Notes under the pieces: model-generated
Told to the model about the DNA's origin: nothing
The model's database searches: none
Seen by the model: the letters and a program-made list of their open reading frames with translations, nothing else
Assembly (NCBI GenBank): GCA_001938485.1
Contig: MQRK01250511.1
Location: forward strand, 1-64,000
Source: Girardia tigrina
Lineage: Eukaryota
Direction of reading: 5' to 3'
DNA: 64,000 bases
Translations under genes and position numbers: made by a program
In this document: one piece after another, positions 8,266 through 61,871 of the stretch
How the letters are laid out: every line of letters begins with the position of its first letter
How positions within the stretch are numbered: position 1 is the first letter of the stretch

Positions 8266-9195
8266 CCTTCTAGTGGGCGCGCAGTCGTAAAATTTACGAA
8301 AAATGCGCATTACAGCTTTCCCCTCTTATACCACTTTGTTATAAGCGGCGAGCTCCAACCTATTCGAAGGTCAGTGTCTCTCTAAACTACAGACGTATCG
8401 GGTGTGCTTAGAAGTTTGTTATTCATTGATATTTGGGAATTTGAAATGGATCATGACACCAGAAAGCCTCAGGTTATACTTGACTATAACGAAACTAAAG
8501 GCGGAGTGGATACAGTCGACAAAATGTGTGCCGCTTATTCGGTCTCTAGAATAACAAAGAGATGTGTAGGTTTTTACACTTTAATGAATATTGCAGGCAT
8601 AAATGCTCAAATTTTATACAAATTTGCATGCCCAGAAAAAGATCCAAAGCATAGAAGAATTTTTCTAAAAAATTTGGCATTGACCATGATGAAAGAGCAT
8701 CTTATCTTCAGGACAAATGTCAAAGATTTACCGCAAGATATAACTGCTTTTCTGAAAGTGAATTACGGTCGGGAAGTTGAACCGACAACAGAAGAAGAAA
8801 GAATCCCTCCAAAACGCGGTGTCTGTCGGTCATGTGCGCAGGAGAAAAAAGAACCTCAGCATCAAGGAAGTGTTGCCGTTGTCAATCCTTTACATGCAAG
8901 AACCATTCTGCATTTGAGGTGGTTTGTAATAATTGTAATGTTGAGAATATTGATTCTGACTAAAACGTGGATAGTTTTTGTTTTTTGTTGTTGATACAAG
9001 TGTTGTTTCGTTTTTTTGTTTAGAAAGTCAAATATATTTTTGTACATTACTGTCATTTATCATTTTGCGTAACCTTACAGCAATTCCCTTACATTTATAT
9101 AAAGAAAACACCATTTACATAAAGAAAACTTGATGACGTAAAATTTACGACAAGCGCCCGCTCCAGTGATGTTATTCAGCGCGCCCGCTGGAAGG
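8266..9195 (+). mobile_element. piggyBac deletion derivative with transposase C-terminal fragment (8404-8994)
   Basis: TTAA TSDs at 8262-8265 and 9196-9199. TIRs CCTTC(T/C)AG(T/C)GGGCGCGC. Internal CGTAAAATTTACGA motifs near both ends. ORF has KP..ILDYNETKGGVDTVDKM and a C-terminal Cys motif. Confidence 0.95.
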
Positions 9196-16999: not shown

Positions 17000-18395
17000 A
17001 ATTTTATTTTTTCGAATGTTACATATTTAATTATATAAAAATTTTAATTTGTACATATTTAATATAACATTCTTTCAAAAATTTTCCTAACATTTTTAAT
17101 TCCTAACATTCCCCCTTTTCTTTAAAATTTTTGAACTTTTCGACATTTCTTACTATTTGTTTTTTCTCTTTATCCTCCAGTTTATAACTCATCTCATGAT
17201 TTTTTTCTATGATGCTGTATGGTCCCTCATATCTGTCATCATCTTTATTTCTTATCTCTTTTTTTACCCACACCTGATCTCCGATATTGAAATTTCGTCG
17301 TGTTTTTCCGTCTGGATACTTGATGTTGTCGTCTGACGTGTTTATTTTATTGCTATACCACTTTAGCCTATCTATTTTTCTATTTACAATACTGCTCCTA
17401 TCCATTTTTCTATTTAAAATTACTTCAACCGAACTTCTTCCAATTGTTTTCTGTCGTGTTGCATTTAATGTGAATTCCACCTCTGGGAGCATATCAGTCC
17501 AACTCGTCTCTTTTCTTTCTTTTAAACTTGCTTGGATATACTCTCGTATCGTTCGGAATTGTCTTTCCACCATACCATTGGTGTTATGGTGGTACGGACT
17601 AGAGAACACTAACTGAATACCTTGTTTTATCATTAATTCTTGTACCTTCTGTGATTCAAAACTTTTCCCACAATCCACATGTATTTCCTTAGGAGCACCA
17701 AATTTTAATATCCATTTTGTCAAACGGTTCAGATGATGTTATCTTGATTGTCTCTTCTTTAGTCTTCGACGTATCTGTTTTTGTTTGTTGACATTCTATA
17801 CAAGTTCCAACTACTTCTTTCACTGTTTTCCGTTCCTCTTCCATTTCAAATTTATCCTTTAAATAATGGTAAACTTTTTCCGCTCCTGCATGAAATAGCA
17901 ATCTGTGTGTCTGTGTGATAAATTCACTTCTTTTCTCTTTGGGTATCCATTCCGTCTTACTGTAGAAAGTAAGCATTTTACTCGCTATAATATCCATGGG
18001 ATGGGGGAGTTCAATGTCCAGGATGACCATATGGAACTTTTCAATCTTGTGTTTCGTCCTAACTATGCGTGTGCATAGGTTATGAAGGGCATGCAATTTC
18101 TTAATGTTCTTGTCTGCAGTTCTCCAGCTTTCCCAGCCTTAGTAGACTACGGAGAATATGCTTGCGTTGATAACTTTCTTCTTATTCCTCAATCAGTTTG
18201 GAGCTTTTCAACAGTGGTCTCAGGTCCCTGATCTTCTGGATTCCTTTCTTGATTCTTTCCATCACTTACGCGTCTACGTTTCCTATTGAAGCGATCGTGG
18301 ATCCTAAGTAACTAAATCTAGAAACCCATGTTAGGAGCGTTTTTGAGTTTATAAAATTTTTGAATTTACAATCTGATCAAATTAATAATTAAACA
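17000..18395 (-). mobile_element. Internally deleted Gypsy LTR retrotransposon (integrase at 17103-18000)
   Basis: H-H-C-C zinc motif, IHVDCG...SPYHHNTNGMVER and GPY. A purine tract precedes a TGTTAGG LTR start at 17108, and the 5' LTR end CCTAACA is at 18329. Same family as 30900-33680. Outer LTR limits are approximate. Confidence 0.85.
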
Positions 18396-20505: not shown

Positions 20506-20779
20506 TTGTTAAATGAAACGAAATTGCGATTTTAATTCTATTTTCAAAACGTTATTTTATTAAATCTGAAAGTAATTTTTAAAACTTATGAATACGAAAT
20601 GAAAAATGCTTTTGTTTAGAATTGGGAAATTTAATTGAAAAACAGTTAAATTTAAATATACAATAAAATGGAAATTTAATAAAAGATGCAACAAAATCTT
20701 TGTGACAAAATTTTAATAAATTCACTGTTTTTGTCAAATCCGTTTCCACTTTCCAATCACGAATTTTGGCCCTGAAGAG

Positions 20780-21187
20780 GGCCGTATATCTTTCGCAATT
20801 CTTAGAAGCATTTGAGGAACCTTCGATGAAATAATCGGGTTGAAAGAATTTCCCAAGGTTCGAATTCAATGCATAATCGAGAGGGGTACTATTCAATTCA
20901 ACCATGACGCTGATTGGCACACATTTTCCATGAATTCCAGAAGTAAAGTAAACGTAAATTCTCGGTAATTGCAAATCACTGTCACCTTCGTAAATACCAG
21001 TGATCGGTTTGATTCCGTGTTCATTAGTGATCATTTTCCAAAACATCGTTCCAATATTTTTTCCACAACTTTGAAATGTTCTCATCAATTCATACCATGG
21101 TTCATAAATGCCTCCACGTGGCTTGATAAAATATTCCGCATTAAAAACATAGCCAAAAGGCAAAGTTATCTGTCCGAAATTATGCAT
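20780..21187 (-). pseudogene. Highly divergent, truncated beta-tubulin N-terminal fragment
   Basis: CGKNIGTMFWKMITNEHGIKPITGIYEGDSDLQLPRIYVYF...GKCVP...FQPDYF aligns with beta-tubulin residues ~12-105. Preceded by a 34-aa unrelated leader. Similarity stops after about 100 aa. Confidence 0.8.
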
Positions 21188-21290
21188 CCAATCTCAAAAT
21201 AATAAAGAAATCGATTTTTCTATATAACTTTATTAGCTATCAAAAACTTAACAATTCTGATTCGTTTAAACAAACGAATCTCTAAAAAAA

Positions 21291-30899: not shown

Positions 30900-33680
30900 G
30901 TCAGAAAGTTATAAAATTCATAAAAAAAGAAAGGTACTGTGAAGGAGAATTGTTAATAATTAATAACTGTGACAATGCCCCAATTACATACAACAGACTA
31001 CAGGGTCGATCAAATTTAAGAGTTAGTATATGAGACACATAAATTGAATGCTTGCTAGATACAGCAGCAGCTTTAAACGTTATGACAGCAGATATACTGG
31101 AGAAATTAAGTAATATAAAGATGGAACAAACAAGCCAGAAGTTAACAGCTGCAAATGGACTACAAACGAATGTTAGAAGAGAAATAGAAACACGGGTAAA
31201 AATTGGAAAGAAAGCCGAGAAGATAAGATTTGTAATAGTGAAAAATTTAAAACCAGACATAATTGGGGGCATGCTATTGATGAAGGAATTTGGGATAGAA
31301 TTAAAGTGGAAAGAAGAAAATTACCGGGATAAGACGGTAAATAACATATGCGAAATTGACGCAAAATTAAGGAAAGTAATTACGGATGAAGATAGAGTCA
31401 AAGAAGCTTTGAAAACAATAGAGATAAGGAACGATAAATCACCAGAGGATATAATCCATCAATATCGAGGTATATTTATAGTAAACGATTGAGATATAGG
31501 ATGTACAAACTTGTTGCGACATAGAATAGAAACGACAGGAGGACCTATAAATATAAAACTAAGAAGGCAGCCGGTGCACTTAGAAGACAAAATAGAGGAA
31601 GTAATTAAGAACCTAGAGATAAATGGGATAATAAGACCTTGCAATTCACAATGGAACATACCAATAGTATGCGTTTGGAAAAAGGATAAAGACAAAATAA
31701 GGCTATGTCTCGAATTCAGACAGTTAAGTTTAATAACACAGGCATTCTCAATGCCAAACATTGCAGAAATGATGGATAGATCACACGGAACAAAATATTT
31801 CAGTATGATAGATTTAGGAAACGTATACTAGCAAGTAGAATTGGATGAAGAATCGCAAGAAAAACAGCATTCTCCACAAAAGCATGAAAATTTTGTTTTA
31901 AGCGTATACCTTTCGGTATAGCAGATACACCAGGAACATTCCAGGAATTAATGAATAATGTATTAAAACCAATACAGAAGGGAGCATCAGTCTACTTGGA
32001 CGACATACTAATAGCAACAAGAACAAAGGAAGAACACCATTCCGTATTAAGAGAAGTATTGGAAAGAATTAAGCAAACTGGACTAAAAATAAGACCATCA
32101 AAATGTAGAATGTTACTACAAGAAATGAAAAATTTAAGTCATATCATAAACAACCAAGAGATAGAGACAGATCTGGAAAAGATTTCAGCTATAGAAAATA
32201 TTCAAAGACCGAAATGCATTAAGAACTTGAGAAGCTTTTTAGGAATTTGTAATTTCTACAGAAGCTTTATTAACGGATACTCAAAGAAAGTTAAAGTATT
32301 AGACAGTATGTGTGGTTTGAATAAAGAAAAATTAATTTGGAAGAATGCATGTGAACTAGCTTTTCAGGAGATGAATAAATCACTGATAACGGCACCAATA
32401 TTGAGTTTTCCAGATTTCACAAAACAGTTAATTTTGGATACAGACACCAGTTTTGATAACATAGGGGCGGTGTTGTCACAGATAGGTGAGTCAGGTAGGG
32501 AGCAGGTCATAGCATACAGATCACACACTATGTTAGTACACGAAAGAGGTTTTTGAATCACAAGGAAAGAATTACTGGCAATTTATTATTTTTGCCAGCA
32601 TTTCAACCATTATCTATACGGGAAAAAGTTTAAATTAAGAACAGATTACAAGCAATAACATTTATGTTCCTTACAAAAAGACCTCTGACAGCCCAGTTCC
32701 AAACGTGGATGAATTATCTAAGTAGTTTGGAGTTAGAAATAGAATACAGAAAAGGAAAACTACATAGCAACGCGGACATGCTGTCAAGAGGGAATTGTGA
32801 CACGTGTACGCAGTGTCAAATGGAACATGAGGAGGCCAAAAAGGTAAGAATAAGACCAGATTATTAGCAGTAACTACAAGAACTCAAGCCAGAGCAGGGC
32901 AGAAAGAATGGATACCAAAAGAAAGACGGAACGATTTAATTTCACAGACACATAGACTACTGTGTCATGCTGGAGCAGAAAAAGTATACGAATATCTAAG
33001 GAATAAGTTCAACAAGGAGATGAAAAGCAAACGGTTAAAGAGGTGGTAGGAACATGTATAGAATGCCAACAGACAAAAGCGATGATCACTTAGACAAAGG
33101 AAGAAAACTTTAAACTAGCAGCGTCAGAATTATTCGAGAAGATTTACATTGATATCTATGGACCGTGGAACGAGACAGTGAGAAGAGAAAGATATTTTGG
33201 AAAATATATTCTTTTCTTTTTTGAAATGATAGATCACTTTAGTAAATATGTGAGTTTAACGGCTATCAAAAGACAAAACGAAGAAGCAATAATACAAACA
33301 ATATTACAAAAATGGATAGTAAAATTTGGAACACCAAAGGAGATGCATTTTGATTGTGGTAAGAGCTTTGAGGCAAAGAAGGTTAGAGAAATATTAGAAT
33401 CGAGACGGGTTAAAATAGTTTTCTCCAGTCCATATTATCATAATACAAATGGAATAATAGAAAGATAATTACGGACTATTCAAGAATTTATTCAAGTAAG
33501 TTTGAAAGAAATAAATGCTACGAGTTTGTTAGATATATTACCAGAAGTTGAATTTGCCATAAACGCAACCAAACAGAAAGTGATATAATGCAGTCCAGTG
33601 GAAGTTGTATTTTGGAAGAAAATAGACATGCAACAGTGGTATGTGAACAGTAAAATAAATCGAGAAGATACAAGACAAAA
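30900..33680 (+). mobile_element. Degenerate Gypsy pol (protease, RT, RNase H, integrase)
   Basis: CLLDTAAALN, WNIPIVCV.KKD...RLC, YLDD, LRSFLGICNFYR, LDTDTS, HRLLCHAG..C..C and IDHFSKY...SPYYHNTNGIIER. Many stops and frameshifts. LTRs not resolved. Confidence 0.93.
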
Positions 33681-37502: not shown

Positions 37503-37764
37503 AATTAATTTTTGTTTAATTTTATCAAAATTAATGTAAAGTTTTATATTAATTATTTATATATTTTATTATAAAAAAGTTTAGACTAATACTATTTTAA
37601 TAAAATATAAATATTTTTAAAAATAAAAACAAACATATTAAAACAAATTAAAAATATTTATATTTTATTAAAATAGTATTAGTCTAAACTTTTTTATAAT
37701 AAAATATATAAATAATTAATATAAAACTTTACATTAATTTTGATAAAATTAAACAAAAATTAAT
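37503..37764. repeat. AT-rich palindrome, ~117-bp arms with a ~27-bp spacer
   Basis: 37503-37620 is the reverse complement of 37648-37764. Confidence 0.9.
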
Positions 37765-38155: not shown

Positions 38156-38867
38156 GTAAGTCAATGTTAAGTTATTTGAATGGATATATTTTCATTAGGT
38201 AATATTAAATATTATTGAAGTTAGATATTTTTATAAATATTATTAAATATATATACCGTAGTACATGATGTGAGATTTTAGTTTTTTCAAAAACATTCAT
38301 GTTTCATCATGTAAAATATACGTAAAATGTATTTTTTTTATAAAAAATATATTAAATAAAGAATTATTAAAATTTTTTTAAAAATATTTATTTAAATATT
38401 TGTATTAATTGAATATACTGCTTTTTATTTAATTAAATGTAAATCCTCGTTTATAACAGAAATTTTGATTTGTGATTTACTGATTTTATAATATATATTG
38501 ACCTTTATTTGGGATAAAATTGTTTTACTTCATTCAGTATTATATTGGATGTTATAAAACCATGTTTGGAATGTGCAGTTTTGTGTAGAGTTGAGTGATT
38601 ATTAGTATTGTGATTATTAAATAGTTGAAATTATTTTTTATTCCAGATTTGTTTAATTTGCTCAAAAATTGTGATTGTGAATTGAGAGCTACAAATCTTG
38701 ACTTTGCTTTGAGAGTTAAAATGGTGGTTGCAATGTGTTTTGTACCTATTGCTCATTTAGAAACAAACATCAGTGTGAGACAGAATTGTTTTAAAAAAAT
38801 TTAATTGAAAAAGTAAAATTAAGTAAAACTTTCAAATTAAAGTCTGTTAATTAAAATATGTATTTTC

Positions 38868-39580
38868 TGTTGTATATTAGATATTTTGATTATTTCAAAT
38901 ATTTAATATATGCCTTTTTGATAAATATTTTGTTTGAATATTATCAATTAAACATTGTTTTGAAAATAAACTTTTCGAGTGTTACAAGCCATCCGGGCAT
39001 AACGAATGATATGAAAATCGTTTTGGAGTTTTTGGAAAAATTCGATGGAAGCATCAGCTTCGAGATTTGGCAGAAGAAATTTGAAATGGTAATGAAAATC
39101 CAGAAGATTACTGATCCAGCCCCGTATCTCCCCTTTTTACTATCGGGGGTTGCACTGAACATATACATGGAATCGGACGAGAAGACACAAAGCAGCTGTG
39201 ATCGGTTCTTCAAGTTACTAAACAACTCGTTCGGACTGACTAGACGTTCTGCGTATAGTCAATTGATAAACTTACAGTATCACGAGGGCGAGACTATCGA
39301 TGAATATGCGTCTCAGGTGAAAATGTTAGCAACAAAGGTCGACGATCTAACAAAGGCTGCCTTCATGGCTGGACTGCCTTTCGAGTTGCAGGTAGATTTG
39401 GAACGCGCCGGCGACCAACCCCTGACCGAAATGATTGAGTATAGCCGCAGGTATTTGGGGATTAAAAAGGGTTTATTACAGGGTTTAATTGCAGCAATAC
39501 AACACGGAAACAACAACAAATATTTATCAAAAAGGCATATATTAAATATTTGAAATAATCAAAATATCTAATATCCAACA
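38868..39580 (+). mobile_element. 713-bp LTR-derived unit with inverted ends and 5-bp TSD, carrying gag
   Basis: TGTTG...CAACA ends. 63-bp inverted repeats (62/63 identical) at 38868-38930 and 39518-39580. TTTTC on both sides. Putative LTR 38868-38986 (TG...CA, AATAAA). Confidence 0.85.
39011..39553 (+). CDS. Gag capsid-like ORF, 180 aa, no zinc knuckle
   Basis: MKIVLEFLEKFDGSISFEIWQKKF...GETIDEYASQVKMLA...AFMAGLP. Paralogous to the 44092-44775 ORF, which is followed by a CCHC knuckle. Confidence 0.75.
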   Translation: MKIVLEFLEKFDGSISFEIWQKKFEMVMKIQKITDPAPYLPFLLSGVALNIYMESDEKTQSSCDRFFKLLNNSFGLTRRSAYSQLINLQYHEGETIDEYASQVKMLATKVDDLTKAAFMAGLPFELQVDLERAGDQPLTEMIEYSRRYLGIKKGLLQGLIAAIQHGNNNKYLSKRHILNI

Positions 39581-41138
39581 TTTTCCTTTGTATTTGAATT
39601 ACATGAAAAAAATTACATGAAAGAAATTACATGAATTGTGAGCGAATAAATGTATGATATGGAAAATGTTTTGATGTATTTTATAGGCAGTGTATTTTAA
39701 AAGCACAACATGATTTTATCCGAAGGAGAAAGTAAAATTTTCTATTTGACATAATTGGATTATAAATTTCTAAATGTTTTCATAAAATATTACTGTTACC
39801 ACCAGTTTAATTTTTCAACTTCTCAATTTCAAAATTTTTTTTAACGAACAAACTCCTTATAATTTATTATTAAATATAAATACCACGTTATTTCAATTTG
39901 AATTACTGACTGAACTCTTTTTTTATAATTTTTTATTTTAGAAAAACATCACGATAAAAGTCTTGGCCTTCTCATTTGAAAAACCAAAATCAAACAACAG
40001 AATTTCAAAATGTTTATTGTGTTAGATATATTAACAAACAAACGTACATAATTTTTTTCGGAGAAAAAAACAAAAAAATAACGAAAAATATGCGTATGAG
40101 GGGTTAATTTTATATTTTTATCTCGCCTGAATAGTTTATTATTTTTTTAATTTAAAGGGTAAAATATTTTTATGTTAATTTGCTTATTAAATATTTTAAA
40201 AAAATTAAAAATTATATAATAAAAGAAAATCANNNNNNNNNNNNNNNNNNNNNNNNNNNNNNNNNNNNNNNNNNNNNNNNNNAAAAATTGATTTTGAAAA
40301 TAAAGTTTAAATAATTTTTTGAAATAAATTTTCGAAATAAATTTTCAGGGTTTTAAAAATTAAATCGAAAAGAATTTATTAGATTAATTTGGGTCGAGAT
40401 AATTAAATTAAATTAACAGGAAAATTTGTTTTAGAAATGTGAATTGTTATAGTAATAAATTTTTGGTGTTAAATTATGGCTTTAGAATGTGATAATAATG
40501 AAAGTGGCATAAACGCTACTTACAATGCGGTTTATATTTTTGAAGTGCATTTCAATTTTTTATATTTTAAAATATGGAAAATAGAAGGAATTTTTTTAAA
40601 TCTTACATGATTATTATAATTTATAAAAGATTTATTCTGGAAAATATCGCTGCGCGTGTAATTAAAAGTTTTGGACGCTGCTTTAAAAATCAGTGCGCGG
40701 ACATACATTTGCACAGCTTGGAGGGGACTTTGATCATTACATATCCCATATAATCCTACTGTTCTTTTATAAGGACATAAAATTGACGCCATATGAATAA
40801 GTAAAAACAAATAATAAGAAATAATATAATATATTACATGACTGTGAGAAATAATTGATACGAAACTGTTGAAAATTCTTGTCATTTGGTAAAATTTATT
40901 GGTGTTTCAATCACATGTCTTTTATGAGCAAAAATGTGTCGGGTTTGAATTGGATATTTTTTTGTATATATGGTATGTTTTTTTAGAGTATTGCTTTTCC
41001 TATCGTGAAGGTTGATCAATATATTTAATAGTTTCAATCTGCAAATGTAATTCTAAATTTAATACTAAATTTATTTTAACTAAATTTGTTGATGTACTAC
41101 TTTTAATTATTTCAAAATTTCAATGTCTCATATTTAGT

Positions 41139-42301: not shown

Positions 42302-42791
42302 ATGAAAACTGAATCTTATCCACCGAAATCGAATCCGAGAATTTGAGAGAAATCTAAAGTAGAAAAGACGAACATTAAACCGACGAATATTGCAACGCTT
42401 TTGGACAAGAGTACGCGAAGCACTGCTTCTTCTTCTTCGGCAAAGTCGACTCGAACGACATTAAAATCTAAATTATTGAAAATCCAAGAATCTCTAATAT
42501 CTCCGTCAATTTCCGAGTCGAAAATCGAAAAAGAAAGACAAATGATAGAATTCTTGCTGCGGCAGGTGCACCCAGACACTGGCATCTCTGGAAAAGCCAT
42601 ATCGATCATGATAAATTCCGTGAACGATGTGTTTGAGCAGATTGCAAGTGAGGCTAGTCGATTGGCGCATTACAACAAGAAGTCGACGATCACGAGCAGA
42701 GAGATTCATACGGGAGTGAGATTGCTGCTTCCGGGGAAAGTTGGCTAAGAACGCCGCAAGCAGAGAAAGACATACGTCCCTCTTTAGAGCC
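42302..42791 (+). pseudogene. H2B: Histone H2B variant pseudogene with degenerate 3' stem-loop
   Basis: [60 protein letters not shown]. Early stop at 42344, frameshift after LLPG, C-terminus lost. GTCCCTCTTTAGAGCC at 42776-42791. Confidence 0.9.
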
Positions 42792-43919: not shown

Positions 43920-44927
43920 TGGTTATCAAATTTAAAACTGAAATCTAACCGACTTGTTGTTAACAATGACAGTCATGGTTGGCAGCGCCGGAAATGTCAA
44001 AGGGAGAGAGCCGGCGCCTACAAACTCTCCTGTCCGTTTCCCGACTTGCAATATTTTGTAATATGTCCAACTTGCTTACATTTATAGCAAATTATTTGTC
44101 ATTAGATTGCCGCTGAGAATTTTCATTACGGTTTACCCTTGTTTGTACCAGATTTCCGTCATGTGGCACACGGGTTTTTGTAAAGGAACTCCTTCTATCG
44201 CTGCTAACCTCACCTCGTTCTTTAGAAACGATCTTTCCATCACCAACGTTTTGTACCGCTGACATTGAACTTTGTGTGACGCATTTTTTAATTCCTAAAT
44301 ACCTACGACTATATTCAACCATTTCGGTTAAATCTTGATCTCCGACCTGCTCTAAATTCAATTGCAACTCGAACGGCAATCCAGCCATAAAGGCCGTCTT
44401 GGTCAGATCGTCGATTTTTGATGCCAACATCTTTACTTGAGAAACGTAATCATCAATAGTTTGTCCTTCGTAATATTTCAAATTAAGCAGTTGGCTGTAC
44501 GCAGATCGTCTGGTTAATCCGAATGAATTGTCCAAGATTTGCAGTACTTCTTCACAGTTGCTCTGTTTCTTTTCATCCAATTCCATGTATATATTTAAAG
44601 GAACATCAGTCAACAAAAAAGGAAGATATGGGGCCGGATCCGAAATCCCCTGGATTTTCATAATCATCTTGAACTTTTTCTTCCAAATTTCAAAACTGCA
44701 GTTTCCATTAAATTTCTCCAAATGATCGAGTATAATTTTTAAATCGCTTTTCATTGCCCGGATAGCTTGTAACAACGAATCACAAATCTATTAAAATTTA
44801 TTTTTCACTAACAAATACTTTTAAAAATAGATATTATTTAAACAAATAATTATCTATATTTTTTCATGTTAAATATTTCATTTAAGAAATAAATTTAACG
44901 TGTAACGTTTAATTTAAAAAATTAACA
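43920..44927 (-). mobile_element. 5' part of a Gypsy-type LTR element: LTR (44768-44927), PBS-like site, gag with CCHC, start of protease
   Basis: TG...CA LTR on the minus strand. Gag ORF 44092-44775. Frameshifted CYKCKQVGHITKYC knuckle, then ALPTMTVIVNNKSV. Confidence 0.8.
44756..44767 (-). promoter_or_regulatory. Putative primer-binding site AGCTATCCGGGC
   Basis: Directly abuts the LTR end. Conserved (11/12) at 38987-38998 in a copy whose LTR sequence has otherwise diverged. Confidence 0.65.
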
Positions 44928-45465
44928 AGAAAAAAAATTCTAAAAAATCAATATTCAAAATTTGATTTTTATTCAAAAAAAGACAAAAAGAAAAAAATAA
45001 TTAAATCATTTTTTATTTTTAATTTCAAAGAAACAAAAGACAAAAAAACTAAGAATTAAAATATTTTAATGCAATTTGAGGAATCACTTGGAACATTTAA
45101 GCATGGTTTATAATGCTTATTTAAAATGCTTCGGTGATTATCCTCTCCTTATAATTGTCAAAATTTTTACATGAATTTTTTTTTACAAAATTCCCAATCA
45201 CTCCCTATATTTTCTCGATACCTAAAATCCAATATATGATTAAGAATGGAAGTGTTTCGACTCGATTTAGTATGTTTCAATTTTTCAATTCAATTTTTCA
45301 ACTCTCAATTTCACAAGTGTATTTCATATATATTTTTAAGAATAATAAGTATTTCATTTTACCAAATAAAAAAAATATAAATGCTATTTGTTCTTTATAC
45401 ACAATAATATCTTTTAATTGAAATTTTTGTTAATAATATACTAAAATATCTAGGCAAGATTTTAA

Positions 45466-47609: not shown

Positions 47610-50600
47610 CATTTATTGCATGAAACTGTACCCCATCCATCAATGAAACGTTCTTGTACAGGATTACCCTAATGAGAAAGTTGTGCTCAGCACAGCCATC
47701 ATGCGGTCCTAGACTCTTCTGCATCGGGTGTGGGAGTTCGTGGAATTCAATCCACTCATTCAATTGGTCTCTTAATAGCGTTGCCAGAATCTTATAAGAA
47801 CACTCTAGCAACGATATCGGTCTCCATGAGGAGATTTCTCTATATTGACCTTGTTTTCCCTGTTTTGGAAGAAGAATAGTAAAAAACTTCTTCCAACTTT
47901 TTGGCACAACTCGGCTGTTAATGATCCTATTATATAATTTAGTGAAAATTACTCCCACTAGATCACAATACAACATATCTTTATATGTTATATTTGAGTA
48001 ACCAGGGGAGGAAATATTCGCTTTTTGAAGTGCACTCACCACCTCTCCACTCTCCACTTCTTGTAACTCAAATGAATCTCTCCTTTTCATCAAAAGGGTG
48101 TCCAACAGTTCACTGATCGGTGGGGCAGTTGATTTGGAGCTAAAGTGCTCCACAATTGCCTCTGTTGATGGTGTAGTGTCTGCAATAGTGTTGTGCAAAA
48201 TTAATTGAACCACCTTCCTCGGATGATTCTTATACATCTTCCTCAGGCCGGGATCCTGATTGGTTGACTCATTAGTGATATTTCCCATGTACAGATTTCT
48301 CCTTTTTATGGATCTGTGAGATTATATATACATAGTTATATCCTTCTCCATCATGTCTGGGTCAACCAATGCTGGGCGGATCTCAGTAAATGTGATTGAT
48401 CTGTCAACTCTTTCTGCACGAGTTGCTACAAGAGTAGCCCGATCCTACTTTTCTTTGGTCTTTCTTCTTTGCTCTCAACACAAACGGCACGATCTTCTGT
48501 TTGATTTTTTGTACATTAATATCGAACAAATCTCAGTCCTCCATGAGAGCATGAATAAATCCACACACCATCAGCCAAGTTTCTCCACTATTTCTCACCA
48601 GTTGGTGAGGTTGACCAAACACATTGATCTTCATTTCTCTTTTTGTGAGACACAAATGTTCAATGTATTTTGCCTCCATCTTCATCCTTGCCAGTAAACC
48701 TTCATCAATTATATCTGCTGTCGAGTCCAGTACTGATATATGGTGCTGCACTAAGTCTGCAACAAACAGCACCCATTTCCTGTTGTCAACCAGTGACGGC
48801 ATGTAGATGAACTCCTTCTCAGCGAAACTGTTAAGGTTAACAAGTTTTCTGAGAAAAGCCACACTGTCCTTGCTTATTGGAGTCGCAACAACTGGCTTAA
48901 CTGTAAGGTGTTTGTTGCTCAATGTGTACGCATTGATAAACACCGAGAAGTGATTTTCTGTGAACGATAGATATTTCTGTAATGAATTGTCCAGTGGAGC
49001 AGCTCCAATTCCAATCATTTTTGGAATATTCTCGTCAGTCGGAGTCATTTCCACAAACTATCTCATACTCCTCACAGCCATTGTTGGATCCTCCTCCAAT
49101 CCATCTTCTACCAATCCAGCTGAATATATGCATACAAATGGACCGCAATCATAATCGTTGTTCTGATATATGGCCGGTACACACTCGCTATCAAACTCTA
49201 GGGGGCGATCAAACAAGAATTTGTTGATAATACCATGGAGCTTCTCTCCCATCGCCATTGTCTCATTCTTCAACACGCTCTCTTTGTGGGGGTGGAATAT
49301 AATGGCAATTCCATCTTCTATCGAGACTCCATACAAGACCCAGTGAGCATTGCGCACATTTAATGGGCAGAGCAAGAAGTTACATGAATTCAGATATTGT
49401 TTTTCAAAGCCCATGAATTGCTTAACTCTACTTCTGTTGTTCAACATGGTGTTGGAGTCCACTGGGCTCACATATTCTTCTGTCACCAGAGCTACATGGT
49501 TTCTAAAGTAAAAATCAATGTGCTTACTATTAAACCACATTGAGTTGACTGTTGTCATCACCTTTGGAACCTGCACACTCTCTATCATGCATTCATCATC
49601 CACATATGAGAGTGGGCAATCCATCCCTGCTTTTGTTGATGGGATTGACTCATCCGGTCATTGTGAGAATTTCTTTGTTTCTGGAGATTGTTTCTTCACT
49701 ATTTTGCCCTTCTTGTCAACAAGAAAGAACCCATCTTCATACAAAACATCTATCATCTCCATCTTCTTCTTCACCAGGCCTGGTTTCTTTTCTGACTTAA
49801 GAATCGTTTTAGAAACCGGTCCTGGTCTCTTGGTGTTCTTCACAACTGTTGGTGGTGTCTTTGAAGTCACTAACCCCAGGTGGTGCCTCATTCTTTTGTA
49901 TTTGTTGTGTTGATCGAGACGCAGGTGATTGAGTGAAGATATCCTGAACCAAGTGAGCAGTCTGTGATGTTCGTTTGTTCTCAATCATATTTTCCAAGTC
50001 CGGTGTGATTGAACCCTTTGGAATGTAGTCTTTACTTGATGTTAGGTTGGGAATTATCATCCATTTTAAATCAAAAAGAAATTAAGACTTGCAAAATTTA
50101 TTAATCTACAACAGGTTAAATTTGTTATTTAAACAAATTTTCATTTTTTTTATTTTCTTTTTTTTAATTCTATTTTCCATTTTTTTAATTTCGATTATAA
50201 TTCGAAATTTTTAAAAACTAAAATTCTTATTTTCGAAAATTAAAAAATTAACAACGACACTCTCTTACACTTGATAAAGGTTCTTCTTCTGACGAAGGAA
50301 AAGATGTAGTGCTCGAATCCATACAATCAAACATTGGTGGTGGTATAGTTCGATTATATGAGATTGGTGAGCTCACAATCTCAACATCAGCATTCTGTTC
50401 CTCTTCATCTTCAGTTTCATCATTTTATGTTCCTGTCTTTCATCAATTCTTTGGCGAAGGTGACTTGATAACTCCTCCTCACACACCGAGGTGCCCCATC
50501 AGCTTAGGAGCTCCTCTAGGACAGCTGAACGAAACTTTTCAGGTTGTCCGCCTCTCATAAATACTCCGTCCGTTGTAACATTCACCAAGTTAGAGTAATG

Positions 50601-58109: not shown

Positions 58110-61100
58110 GCCTCCCATCTCTGTAATGGTATTGAGCCTAAGGCTCTTTAGAGGGTCCACCCAAACTAAAGTCCTTAAGGGCCCCCCGATAGATCTCCTA
58201 CGGGGTCAGTGGCCTTCCGGCTCTGAGCAGTCGGCTTGCCAGTAACGAACGACCAACCATGGAACTTGGTACCATGGCCGTACATGCCGTTGGCTGTTAC
58301 GGTGGACGAGTAACAACCGCGAAATGGGCACTTGAATTGTCCTCTTGCAGTCTTGTAATCGGCTGGCAGCGGTATTGTAGGTGCGTCTCTTCGGCATCGT
58401 CGTTCAGCTGTATCCTCGGCATACTCACAGTTGCGTCCGGCAAATGAGGATTGGATTGGTTTGATGTCGGCTCTTCCTCGTTCTCTTCTTCCAAGTTTTC
58501 TTCTCTCTGGGCGTTGGATGTTGGCGCTTCTTGATGATTCTTCTGAATATGAATCCTTAGGAAACCAGTGGTCTTGTATTCCCTTGAACAGTGTTGACAT
58601 TGATATATTCCTTTCTTCTGACGTGGCTGGGCTTTCTACTCTCTCTTCTTCCACGGGATTGGCTCTGCTCTTTGGTGATCTCTTCTGAGATGCCTGTTTA
58701 ACTCCTTCACTTTGTAACAGGCATTCATCTGGCAGCTGTGTTCTTTCAGACGAGGTAGCACCAGTATTAGTGTTTGCTCGTCCCCGATTCTTTGAATTCT
58801 CTTCAATCGGAATACTTCCTCGATCTTTTCATCCATCTTCAGTAAGTTTTCCTGCAGAACGTCTCTTTTAAATTCACCGAAACTGTACTCGGTTCCAAAG
58901 AGCCAGTGAGCATCCACTCTGAGACATTCTACCAGATGTTGCTTTCTCCGACCGCTGATCTTCTTTCCTCCGATGAGTTCGTATCCACTGATCTGCTTGA
59001 CGTTCTCTGGAATTCTCCTAAATCGACCTTGGTATTGTGTACGATTCTTCTTCGCGCGATGATATCCATTGGGCTTTGTAGTCCAATTGATATCTCATCT
59101 ATCCTGATCCTTTCGACTTTCGAAATACCCAAAGTTCGCCGAGTACATAGATTGTGAAATGCTTTTAGCTTTTTCACGTGTACTTCATTTGTCCTCCAAT
59201 TTTCACAGCTGTAGTAAACCACCGGGAATACACAGCTGCTAATTATGTTCTTCTTATTCCGGAGAGACAATTCCAGAGAGACAACAAAATTCAACACTGG
59301 TCTGATCGTCCGTAATTTCGCTGCTCCTTTCTGAATTCTGGCTTTGATGTCCTTACCTGAGCTTCCTCCACTTTCAATTATTGATCCCAGGTAGCAGAAT
59401 TCGTCCACCCATTCTATTCCGGTATTCAGCTCGTCTCTTGCCGTAATGTACTTTGTTCCATTGAGATTCAGGATCTTTGTTTTCCCAATGTTGATTTTGA
59501 GCCCCATATTCAAGAACACAGTGTTGAGACACGTGAGATTCCGTTCGATATTTCCATAGTCTTCGTCCAGTAAGCACAGGTCGTCTGCATAAGCAAGTCT
59601 GTTCACGGTCAGCTCTTCCCCATTGTATTTTAGTTTCACACCACCTGATAGTCCTTCTTTGATCGCGATCTTAATTACATGATCAAAGACAAGGTTGAAT
59701 AGTAGAGGACCCAATACGCAACCCTGACGGACTCCTTTGTCCATACTGAATTTATCCTTTCCAATGCTTCCCGTGAAACCTTCATGANNNNNNNNNNNNN
59801 NNNNNNNNNNNNNNNNNNNNNNNNNNNNNNNNNNNNNNNNNNNNNNNNNNNNNTACGCTGTCAAATGCCTTTTCAAGGTCGATAAAAATAGCAAATACGT
59901 TTATGTTCCGGTATCTGGCCTCTTCTTGTATCTTTCGTAAGATACCAATCGCGTGCGCAGTGCTTCTGTTTGATCTGAAACCAAATTGCCAGTCATCCAA
60001 GATATGCCTCTAGGAATATGCCTCTATAATTATTCAATTCCTTCTTGGAACCCTTTCCTTTGTATAGGATCACGACTTTCGCCGTTTTCCAAGCCTCCGG
60101 GAATTCTGCTCTTTCCTCCCATATGTCCACGAAACATTGCTGTATCTTCTCAGTCAACTGGAGACCGCCCCCTTTATATAGCTCTGGAATGATACCGTTG
60201 TTTCCAGCAGCTGTACAGTTCTTTAGTTGTCCAATAGCGGTACCTACTTCTTCTACGTCCGGTGAGTGGTCTCTTTCGAATGCTTGGCTCTGTTCGATTT
60301 CCACGAGATATTCTCTTTTGCTTTTTCTGAATAGATGTGAGAAGTGCTCTGCTAACACTTCGTCCTTCACACTGCTTTGTACAGAACAGAGAGAGGATTC
60401 CTTCGTTTATCTATTGCAGAGAACACTGAGCTCCGTGTATAACTCAGAAGTCTTGCCTATACATTCTCTGTTGAGAATTCCTTCTATTTCTTGTACAATT
60501 CCCTCAATCCTCTCTCTTTTCCATTTCCTGAGATGCCGCAAGGTGTTTAGTCTTGCAGCCTTCCACGTCGAATATGTTCTTTCACATTTATTCTGAATGT
60601 ATTCTTTCCTTCGCTTCCATTTCTCCTGCAGTAGTGGTTTCAGCTCTTCTATGTGTCCATGTAGCCACCTCTGATTGAGTGGGACTTTTTTCTTTCTGTA
60701 TCTTTCTGAAGTCTTCAAAATGACCTCCACATCATCCCAGTTCTCGACATTCGGACAAGCTTGTCCTATGTCACTACTGATGGCCACTTTGTTGTTCTGC
60801 AAGGAGAATCTGTCAATTTTTCCTTTTCCTTTCTTTCTTCTATCATTCGCCAACTTGAGTACCTTATTGTTGTTGGTGATCCATATCGTTAACACGACTA
60901 AGTCGTGGTCAGAGCCGCAGTCAAAATTCGGGTAGGTTTTGACATTGCTTATCCTGTTGCATCTGCTCTTTTGAGACAGGAATAAGTCCAGTAGTTGTCT
61001 TTTTCTCGTTGCCGGGTATGTCCAGTTAGTTCTCTGCGCCAACTTATGTTTGTAGAAGGTGTTCTCTACTCGTAAGTTGCACGCGTCAGCAAGATCTATT

Positions 61101-61871
61101 AAAAGATCTCCGTTTTCTGATGTTCCTGTTGAACTAGTATAACACCCGACAGTCTTTCCGTTTTCCTCCGTCCAATTAAGTCGACAGTTGACGTCGCCTC
61201 CAACTATCAGTTCGTGTTTCCTCTTATCAGCCTTAGTCGTCGCCCTTTCGACATGTTCTTGCAGTAATGCGAAGAACTCTTCCTTTTCCTTACTTGAGTG
61301 TCCGCTGTCAGTCGGAACGTATACCCCCACCACTGTGATCGACCTTTGGGGTATATGACAGAGGAACACTCTCTCACTGATCACTTCGAATTCGATGTTC
61401 ATTGAATCCCCAGATTTTATCATCATGGTTACGCCTTTCTCCCTTATGCTACTCGTACTGCCACTATGATGGATCCTCCAATCCCCGAAAGAGGCAATGT
61501 CGGTTCCGATCCAGTGCGTCTCTGTGAGTATACACATATCAATTTTCAGTTTTTCGAAAATACTGACGATGTTTAGTACCTTTTCATCGGTTAAGCCTGG
61601 AATATTCAAAGTTCCAACCCTCAGTTCACTGCAAGTGGAATCCTTAACGAGGGATCCCCCTCTCGGGAGCTTAATGACTTTGGGTACTTCCAGACCCCTT
61701 GTTTGAGTTTTAAAAGCTATGTATTAGCGAAGGATAGGGTTGCTAGCCCCGTCGGTCCGTCCACTCATTTAGCCTAGATCAAGGGGACCCCCATTCTATT
61801 TCTACAAAGGGAAGAGACCCTCTTTCTAGTTCCCAGGATACACCACGGGGAGGCGAGTGACACTGTATCCC
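58110..61871 (-). mobile_element. Near full-length RTE-clade LINE (APE endonuclease, RT, C-terminal C2H2-like finger)
   Basis: APE motifs GTLNI, ILTETH, VYVPT, VGGDVN, LLDLF and SDH. RT motifs NYRGI, QFGFRSNRST, FIDLEKAFDSV, GVRQGCVLGPLLFN, YADD and FCYLGS. C-terminal CPFRGC...GH...H. A few frameshifts and one gap. Confidence 0.93.
61761..61871 (-). ncRNA. HDV-like self-cleaving ribozyme at the LINE 5' end
   Basis: P1 GGGAUAC/GUAUCCU with G1.U wobble; P2 UCACUC/GAGUGG; P3 GCC/GGU; L3 UCCCCGU; P1.1 CC/GG; P4 closed by CUAG/CUAG; J4/2 GCUAAAU with the catalytic C at 61772. Confidence 0.92.

Follow-up and report, generated by a model that had tools for sequence, protein, structure and literature searches.

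The locus described here raises the question of how an LTR retrotransposon starts reverse transcription when the usual primer-binding site does not stand behind its LTR. A canonical primer site starts with TGG and pairs with the CCA end of a tRNA. The DNA analysed, referred to below as the window, comprises 64,000 nucleotides of Girardia tigrina (GenBank assembly GCA_001938485.1, contig MQRK01250511.1, positions 1 to 64,000 of the forward strand), and two gag-containing units in it carry the 12-nt sequences AGCTATCCGGGC (44767-44756, minus strand) and AGCCATCCGGGC (38987-38998, plus strand) behind their LTRs. In the initial annotation it was proposed that this lineage primes with a 5′ fragment of about 12 nt from tRNA-Lys(UUU). 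Parts of two papers (PMC10886601, PMC6317226) name three priming modes for LTR elements: by the 3′ end of a tRNA, by a tRNA cleaved within its anticodon arm (Copia only) and by self-priming. As judged from sequence comparison, the site is probably the primer-binding site of a short Gypsy-type clade, in which a 12-nt piece from the 5′ end of a tRNA, likely cut off, would prime minus-strand DNA. The complementarity in the initial proposal stood, and covariation across several tRNAs was added to it; its restriction to tRNA-Lys(UUU) was too narrow, and the cut 12-nt primer is what we infer from the position of the site.

Units A and B in the window

The two units (Table 1) are both incomplete elements with gag fragments. 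Each site lies directly behind the terminal CA of an LTR, as annotated: TGTTACA immediately precedes both, and the paired LTRs of full copies end there. The 15-nt junction pattern has two matches in the window compared with 0.01 expected from shuffles. Dissimilarity of the two LTRs had been taken to mean that the motif is conserved; the LTRs, however, have AT-rich blocks in common and the gag starts are 73 % alike, so that units A and B by themselves are weak evidence of motif conservation. The C at position 4 of the unit A site is peculiar to this copy, its sisters in family 2 having T.

Table 1. Features of the window, with the pol domains of one full copy.
Feature	Positions	Strand	Description
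Unit B (family 1) 5′ LTR	44768..44907	-	140 nt; TGTTACA end; first base unlike sister copies
12-nt site AGCTATCCGGGC, unit B	44756..44767	-	LTR+1; complements host tRNA-Lys(UUU) nt 1-12 exactly
Unit B gag reading frame	44092..44754	-	ATG 2 bases 3′ of site; early end before zinc-knuckle region
Unit B gag end and start of protease region	43946..44091	-	unit breaks off here; no 3′ LTR seen
Unit A (family 2) 5′ LTR	38868..38986	+	119 nt; TGTTACA end
12-nt site AGCCATCCGGGC, unit A	38987..38998	+	LTR+1; 11/12 to tRNA-Lys(UUU) nt 1-12; sister copies 12/12
Unit A gag fragment	39011..39517	+	Retrotrans_gag PF03732, E 5.7e-05, slightly below curated cut-off
Inverted copy of unit A LTR, first 63 nt	39518..39580	-	closes unit A
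TTTTC direct repeat flanking unit A	38863..38867; 39581..39585		
pol domains, one copy			RVP 32-121; RVT_1 244-355; DUF7047 421-476; RVT_3 (RNase H-type) 525-577; integrase zinc finger 642-684
LINE piece	58929..61723	-	endonuclease and RT
Standard Gypsy piece	31888..32556	+	RT-RNase H
Integrase fragment	17103..17738	-	
piggyBac-type transposase fragment	8386..8994	+	
Two tandem Ulp1-protease-like frames; tubulin-like fragment; frame reading like degenerate histone H2B	48533..49657; 20579..21193; 42347..42748	-; -; +	histone H2B frame read by eye
Perfect 117-nt inverted repeat	37504..37764		27-nt loop

Unit A as a whole (38863-39585) consists of LTR, site, gag fragment and the inverted start of its own LTR, and is flanked by 5-bp direct repeats. 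It looks like a fold-back product, apparently integrated via two left ends. Fold-back junctions right at the site, looked for as a mark of plus-strand run-off, were found only once genome-wide, at L026 (G000:C11525), where LTR, site, ACC and inverted LTR, with a 5-bp duplication, are nested in the LTR of another family.

Full elements and clade placement

The host genome (1.43 Gb, AT-rich) was searched with the gag of unit B, which gave 7,455 candidates at first look, 150 of them scored; 20 stretches were fetched and ten LTR pairs examined. Full copies of family 1 are Gypsy-type elements of ∼3.9 kb with LTRs of ∼140 nt running TGTTACA...TGTTACA, and a purine tract (PPT) adjoins the 3′ LTR. A clean 5-bp target-site duplication (TSD) was present in five of the ten LTR pairs shown. 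Since the paired LTRs end at CA and are followed by the TSD, the LTR boundary lies at this CA, and LTR+1 is the first base of the site. Within ∼3.9 kb, one copy encodes gag and, downstream of it, protease, RT, DUF7047, RNase H and integrase in Gypsy order. Direct TG...CA LTRs, TSD, PPT and gag followed by PR-RT-RH-IN agree with Ty3/Gypsy.

Comparison of the RT with references yielded weak matches only, scattered over Ty3, foamy virus and other retroviral chains, and a search of the ESM Atlas returned generic RT/RNase H clusters only. Among 7,996 candidates scored for pol, 203 relatives were obtained at E 1e-100, the named ones being from Trichuris suis, Macrosteles and Petrolisthes; viral contigs contained neither a match to the junction pattern nor a relative. 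The animal Gypsy clades Cigr-1, Tor2, Mag, CsRn1 and MolGy are named without primer sites in the portion of PMC6238403 consulted. Family 1 (window positions 44300-44950) occurs, mostly 95-99 % identical, in runs X1, X5, X7 and X20, which are coded as different organisms or metagenomes; this may reflect either close relatives or recent transfer.

The Lys(UUU) site and the host tRNA

Host tRNA-Lys(TTT) genes start GCCCGGATAGCT, the 12/12 complement of AGCTATCCGGGC, as the initial annotation had predicted, and the family majority equals the tRNA-Lys(UUU) 5′ complement. Over all tRNA positions of a partial host set (62 Rfam matches, 63 candidates scored), the best match of the site was 12/12 at position 1 of tRNA-Lys(TTT). 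The site complements the tRNA 5′ strand rather than copying the 3′ acceptor strand, from which it differs by one base. Genome-wide it occurs 2,183 times after CA and 1,587 times after TTACA, with reversed controls at 0, and TGG is absent at the family junctions examined. A deviating family consensus, a different start of the host tRNA-Lys and better pairing with another tRNA region or with the element's own transcript had been named beforehand as findings that would speak against the proposal; none of them was encountered.

Covariation with other tRNAs

Forty further loci of the same genome were chosen by DUF7047 alone; their pol is ∼30-40 % identical to that of family 1. A site was recognisable in 17 of them, and 23 had none under the pattern used. 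Most of these sites read AGCTATCGCGGC, the complement of tRNA-Phe(GAA) nt 1-12, which occurs in 824 exact copies after ACA (reversed control 0). The host tRNA-Phe was retrieved in pieces, including GAA anticodon pieces, and both its 5′ start and its 3′ acceptor strand agree with the site. The Tyr-type site AGCTATCATCGG was counted as 79/80 exact (reversed control 4) and was read at one DUF7047 locus; the tRNA-Tyr form with A4 that matches it accounts for 23 among the 100 starts listed, with one whole gene (L303).

For Ile(AAU), the expected site was derived from the host tRNAs ahead of the search, which then found it in 78 exact copies (reversed control 0); the matching host tRNA-Ile start is present. 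Twelve of 15 fetched copies have clade pol downstream, seven have paired LTRs that end at the site, and TSDs were seen. LTRs of the Ile-type family (L343, L344, L347, L354) start with TA, not TG, yet show clean 5-bp duplications. A Lys(CUU)-type variant has 20 occurrences in five family contexts, and the Ile(UAU) complement has one occurrence among the matches listed. Complements of tRNA-Thr, -Cys and -Ala were absent among the 100 matches listed, though these host tRNAs have UAGCU at 8-12, and a Met-type site gave no count above background in the own genome. One family of three copies (L091, L105, L112) has AGCTATCGCG followed by TG, which pairs with tRNA-Phe nt 3-12 only (10/12). Across the tRNA switches the seven acceptor-stem bases change in step with the tRNA, and AGCTA, which stands opposite the shared U8-U12, is constant. 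The site follows the tRNA sequence for Lys-UUU, Phe, Tyr, Ile-AAU and, as a minority, Lys-CUU.

Copying of the primer into the site is a possible source of the Lys(CUU)-type base. This base outnumbers the other transversion (G 20, C 17, A 3; with repeated loci removed 18, 12 and 3), but 11 of the 18 Lys(CUU)-type loci fall within two families and may be inherited, and a C-to-A change at the next base is about as common (17 among the 100 matches listed). For Ty3, moreover, an excerpt of PMC7472051 gives the site as strictly inherited.

The tRNA genes themselves showed some peculiarities. All copies of tRNA-Phe retrieved (L356, L120, L121, L128, L155-L157) were in pieces. In L356 (G000:C181207, 89-1947), ∼1.8 kb lie inside a tRNA-Phe gene and 16 bases (nt 16-31) are duplicated; the insert resembles an element that targets tRNA-Phe genes. 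Loci L287-L304 contain 106 tRNA-Tyr starts with one common upstream flank, many cut near the anticodon and some with an intron of 11-12 nt, possibly another targeted or amplified tRNA family.

Metagenome relatives and site evolution

By pol alignment only, 69 metagenome loci were retrieved; 29 were dropped for too little upstream DNA and 40 were usable. AGCTA directly behind CA, followed by seven tRNA-type bases, was found in 28 of the 40, in ten sequence types and 699-999 nt upstream of pol. The remaining 12 comprise two degenerate versions, L204 and nine loci with nothing under the patterns used, some of them visibly cut or rearranged. No candidate TGG site of at least 11/12 was found in the 69 loci, which were scored against the partial tRNA set of this host. 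The commonest type (10/28) ends a Drosophila tRNA-Phe 5′ probe given in part of PMC7038984, and four more equal the Phe, Lys(UUU), Lys(CUU) and Tyr complements of this host; five of the ten types are thus assigned, and among the hosts as a whole Phe types are the most frequent.

An RT tree drawn quickly from 29 rows, with nine rows left out (eight additional copies of family 1 and a degenerate one of the Phe family), implies at least ten site changes, with the Lys and Tyr types each at two separate places. In 56 junction groups conservation does not extend past base 12, bases 1-12 being fixed by the selection pattern. L204 has C as its first base, matching nt 12 of elongator tRNA-Met, and agrees in 11/12 positions with the elongator tRNA-Met of the G. 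tigrina genome; it is a single contig with an odd LTR end (AAA).

Proposed mechanism and alternatives

The site points tRNA nt 12 at the LTR edge and ends at nt 1, so the simplest primer would be nt 1-12. These nucleotides would anneal at LTR+1 and open the acceptor stem; the predicted site-tRNA duplexes have energies of -19 to -23.5 kcal mol−1. A cut at 12/13 would leave a 3′-OH on the 12-nt piece, which would then prime minus-strand DNA, much as in the self-priming of Tf1 except that the RNA would act in trans. For the cut, the RNase H of the element itself is the preferred candidate, as in Tf1, with about even chances against a host nuclease, which would make a longer 5′ fragment for subsequent trimming. 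An RNase H-type domain (RVT_3) is encoded in the element, its activity being predicted, and in Tf1 RNase H cuts an 11-bp duplex with the 5′ end of the RNA, according to a part of PMC7175516. Known 5′ tRNA fragments measure 13-26 nt in the section of a review consulted (PMC10275265), which leaves a free 12-mer outside the established species. With chances a little short of even, a wider reading is advanced tentatively: an old, animal-wide Gypsy clade would have a fourth, undescribed way to start reverse transcription, in which tRNAs with UAGCU at 8-12 are captured and their first 12 bases cut off by its own RNase H.

Covariation demonstrates pairing, not priming. The intact tRNA might dock by nt 1-12, which would free its 3′ acceptor strand, while the 3′-OH would come from the CCA end or a protein, without pairing at the LTR edge. 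Such docking would require no cut in a modified tRNA, and for Ty3 and gypsy, split binding of the tRNA is known from excerpts of the literature. It is nevertheless unlikely, as the site adjoins the LTR end in every family, where the 3′ end of the primer must lie, and none of the junctions scored had a TGG site. About as unlikely is a shorter primer from a tRNA cut after nt 10 or 11, with the AG behind the LTR as a spacer that, as known from Ty3 and retroviruses, is copied and then trimmed by integrase. Two variable bases (AG, CG, GA, GG) separate the PPT from the 3′ LTR and suggest a trimmed 2-nt extension there; the well-supported tRNAs all have C11-U12, which makes spacer and pairing indistinguishable in them. 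The AG is constant in 28/28 strict metagenome sites, however, while the bases on the PPT side vary, and in L204, one case with its odd LTR end, the first base changes with nt 12. LTR-LTR junctions that would show the element ends were looked for and none was found.

A target of 5′ tRNA fragments for the control of translation or packaging, with priming by other means, would fit the proximity of the first ATG, which in 35 of the 56 groups of junctions lies at most 6 nt away from the site. This explanation is very improbable: there is no other primer site at the LTR edge, and a control site would not have to begin at LTR+1 and finish at tRNA nt 1 throughout the families. Self-priming of the Tf1 type, in which the transcript start of the element would be the primer and the tRNA match incidental, is scarcely credible. 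It would explain a duplex of the same length as in Tf1 (11 nt in a passage of PMC7175516), but the LTRs are AT-rich, the sites follow the tRNA sequence, and in 38/38 cases the longest complement of the site does not exceed 7 nt, whether within the 350 nt upstream or elsewhere in the element. A clade-wide U5-leader stem, at which one fold of the window junction had hinted (z -1.41), was not supported, with -6.77 kcal mol−1 for own pairs versus -6.49 kcal mol−1 for swapped pairs (p 0.18). Priming by nt 1-12 of a tRNA is retained as the preferred reading; what the sequences themselves show is the position of the site, its exact complementarity, its conservation throughout the families and the switches between tRNAs.

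Prior description and significance

Searches of the main texts in open PMC and bioRxiv brought up no account of a site that complements tRNA nt 1-12, in agreement with the initial annotation; Repbase, GyDB and subscription papers lay outside this search, in which the prime sign was unsearchable. An account elsewhere (Repbase reports, GyDB, older subscription papers, supplements) is somewhat unlikely. Site sequences occur in 19 papers, and among the 15 of them listed none is, by title, on LTR primer sites; the sequences are absent from seven supplements of PMC13524379, and DUF7047 has no mention in the open literature searched. There was no such site in the portions consulted of PMC4402516, PMC3587641 and PMC12471100, and PMC2774666 is without the terms. 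The PBS search described in the part of PMC13524379 consulted used tRNA 3′ 12-mers only, and searches of that kind cannot see a 5′-complement site.

If the proposed mechanism is correct, the 5′-terminal 12-mer in a Gypsy clade would be a fourth priming mode for LTR elements, very short 5′ tRNA fragments would gain a concrete job, and the elements would become targets of 5′, not 3′, tRNA fragments. The site is also an easy means of recognising this clade, which numbers thousands of copies in the genome and which searches for 3′-end PBSs only would score as having no primer site.

Comparison with known priming systems

Canonical Ty3/Gypsy and retroviral priming resembles the present system in a site directly behind the 5′ LTR, in tRNA specificity and in isoacceptor switches, the last described for 3′-end priming in a part of PMC7472051. 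The present site differs in that it has no TGG and no match to tRNA 3′ ends. In copia the primer is the 5′ half of a tRNA, as stated in an excerpt of PMC10275265. Half-tRNA priming as a whole (Drosophila copia, Ty5, Osser/Bryco/Bianca, rust-fungus Copia and Helenus; parts of PMC10886601, PMC6317226 and PMC10275265) is alike in the proposed 5′ tRNA piece, the lack of TGG and the occurrence of tRNA swaps. These systems, as far as the same parts describe them, pair with the anticodon arm and are confined to Copia lineages, whereas here nt 1-12 pair, a 12-nt primer is proposed and the domain order is that of Gypsy; pairing with an anticodon arm was absent (in the partial host tRNA set the best matches are all at position 1), as was Copia order with IN before RT.

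Tf1/sushi, according to a part of PMC7175516, is similar in that the first 11-12 bases of an RNA pair beside the LTR, and both belong to the Gypsy superfamily. Tf1 uses its own transcript in cis, whereas a host tRNA would act here in trans, with an LTR that holds no complement and without a clade-wide U5-leader stem. Possibly the mode proposed here is Tf1 self-priming in a trans form, and connects tRNA priming with self-priming. It would work like the fragment priming of copia with the geometry of Tf1, and belongs to neither group.
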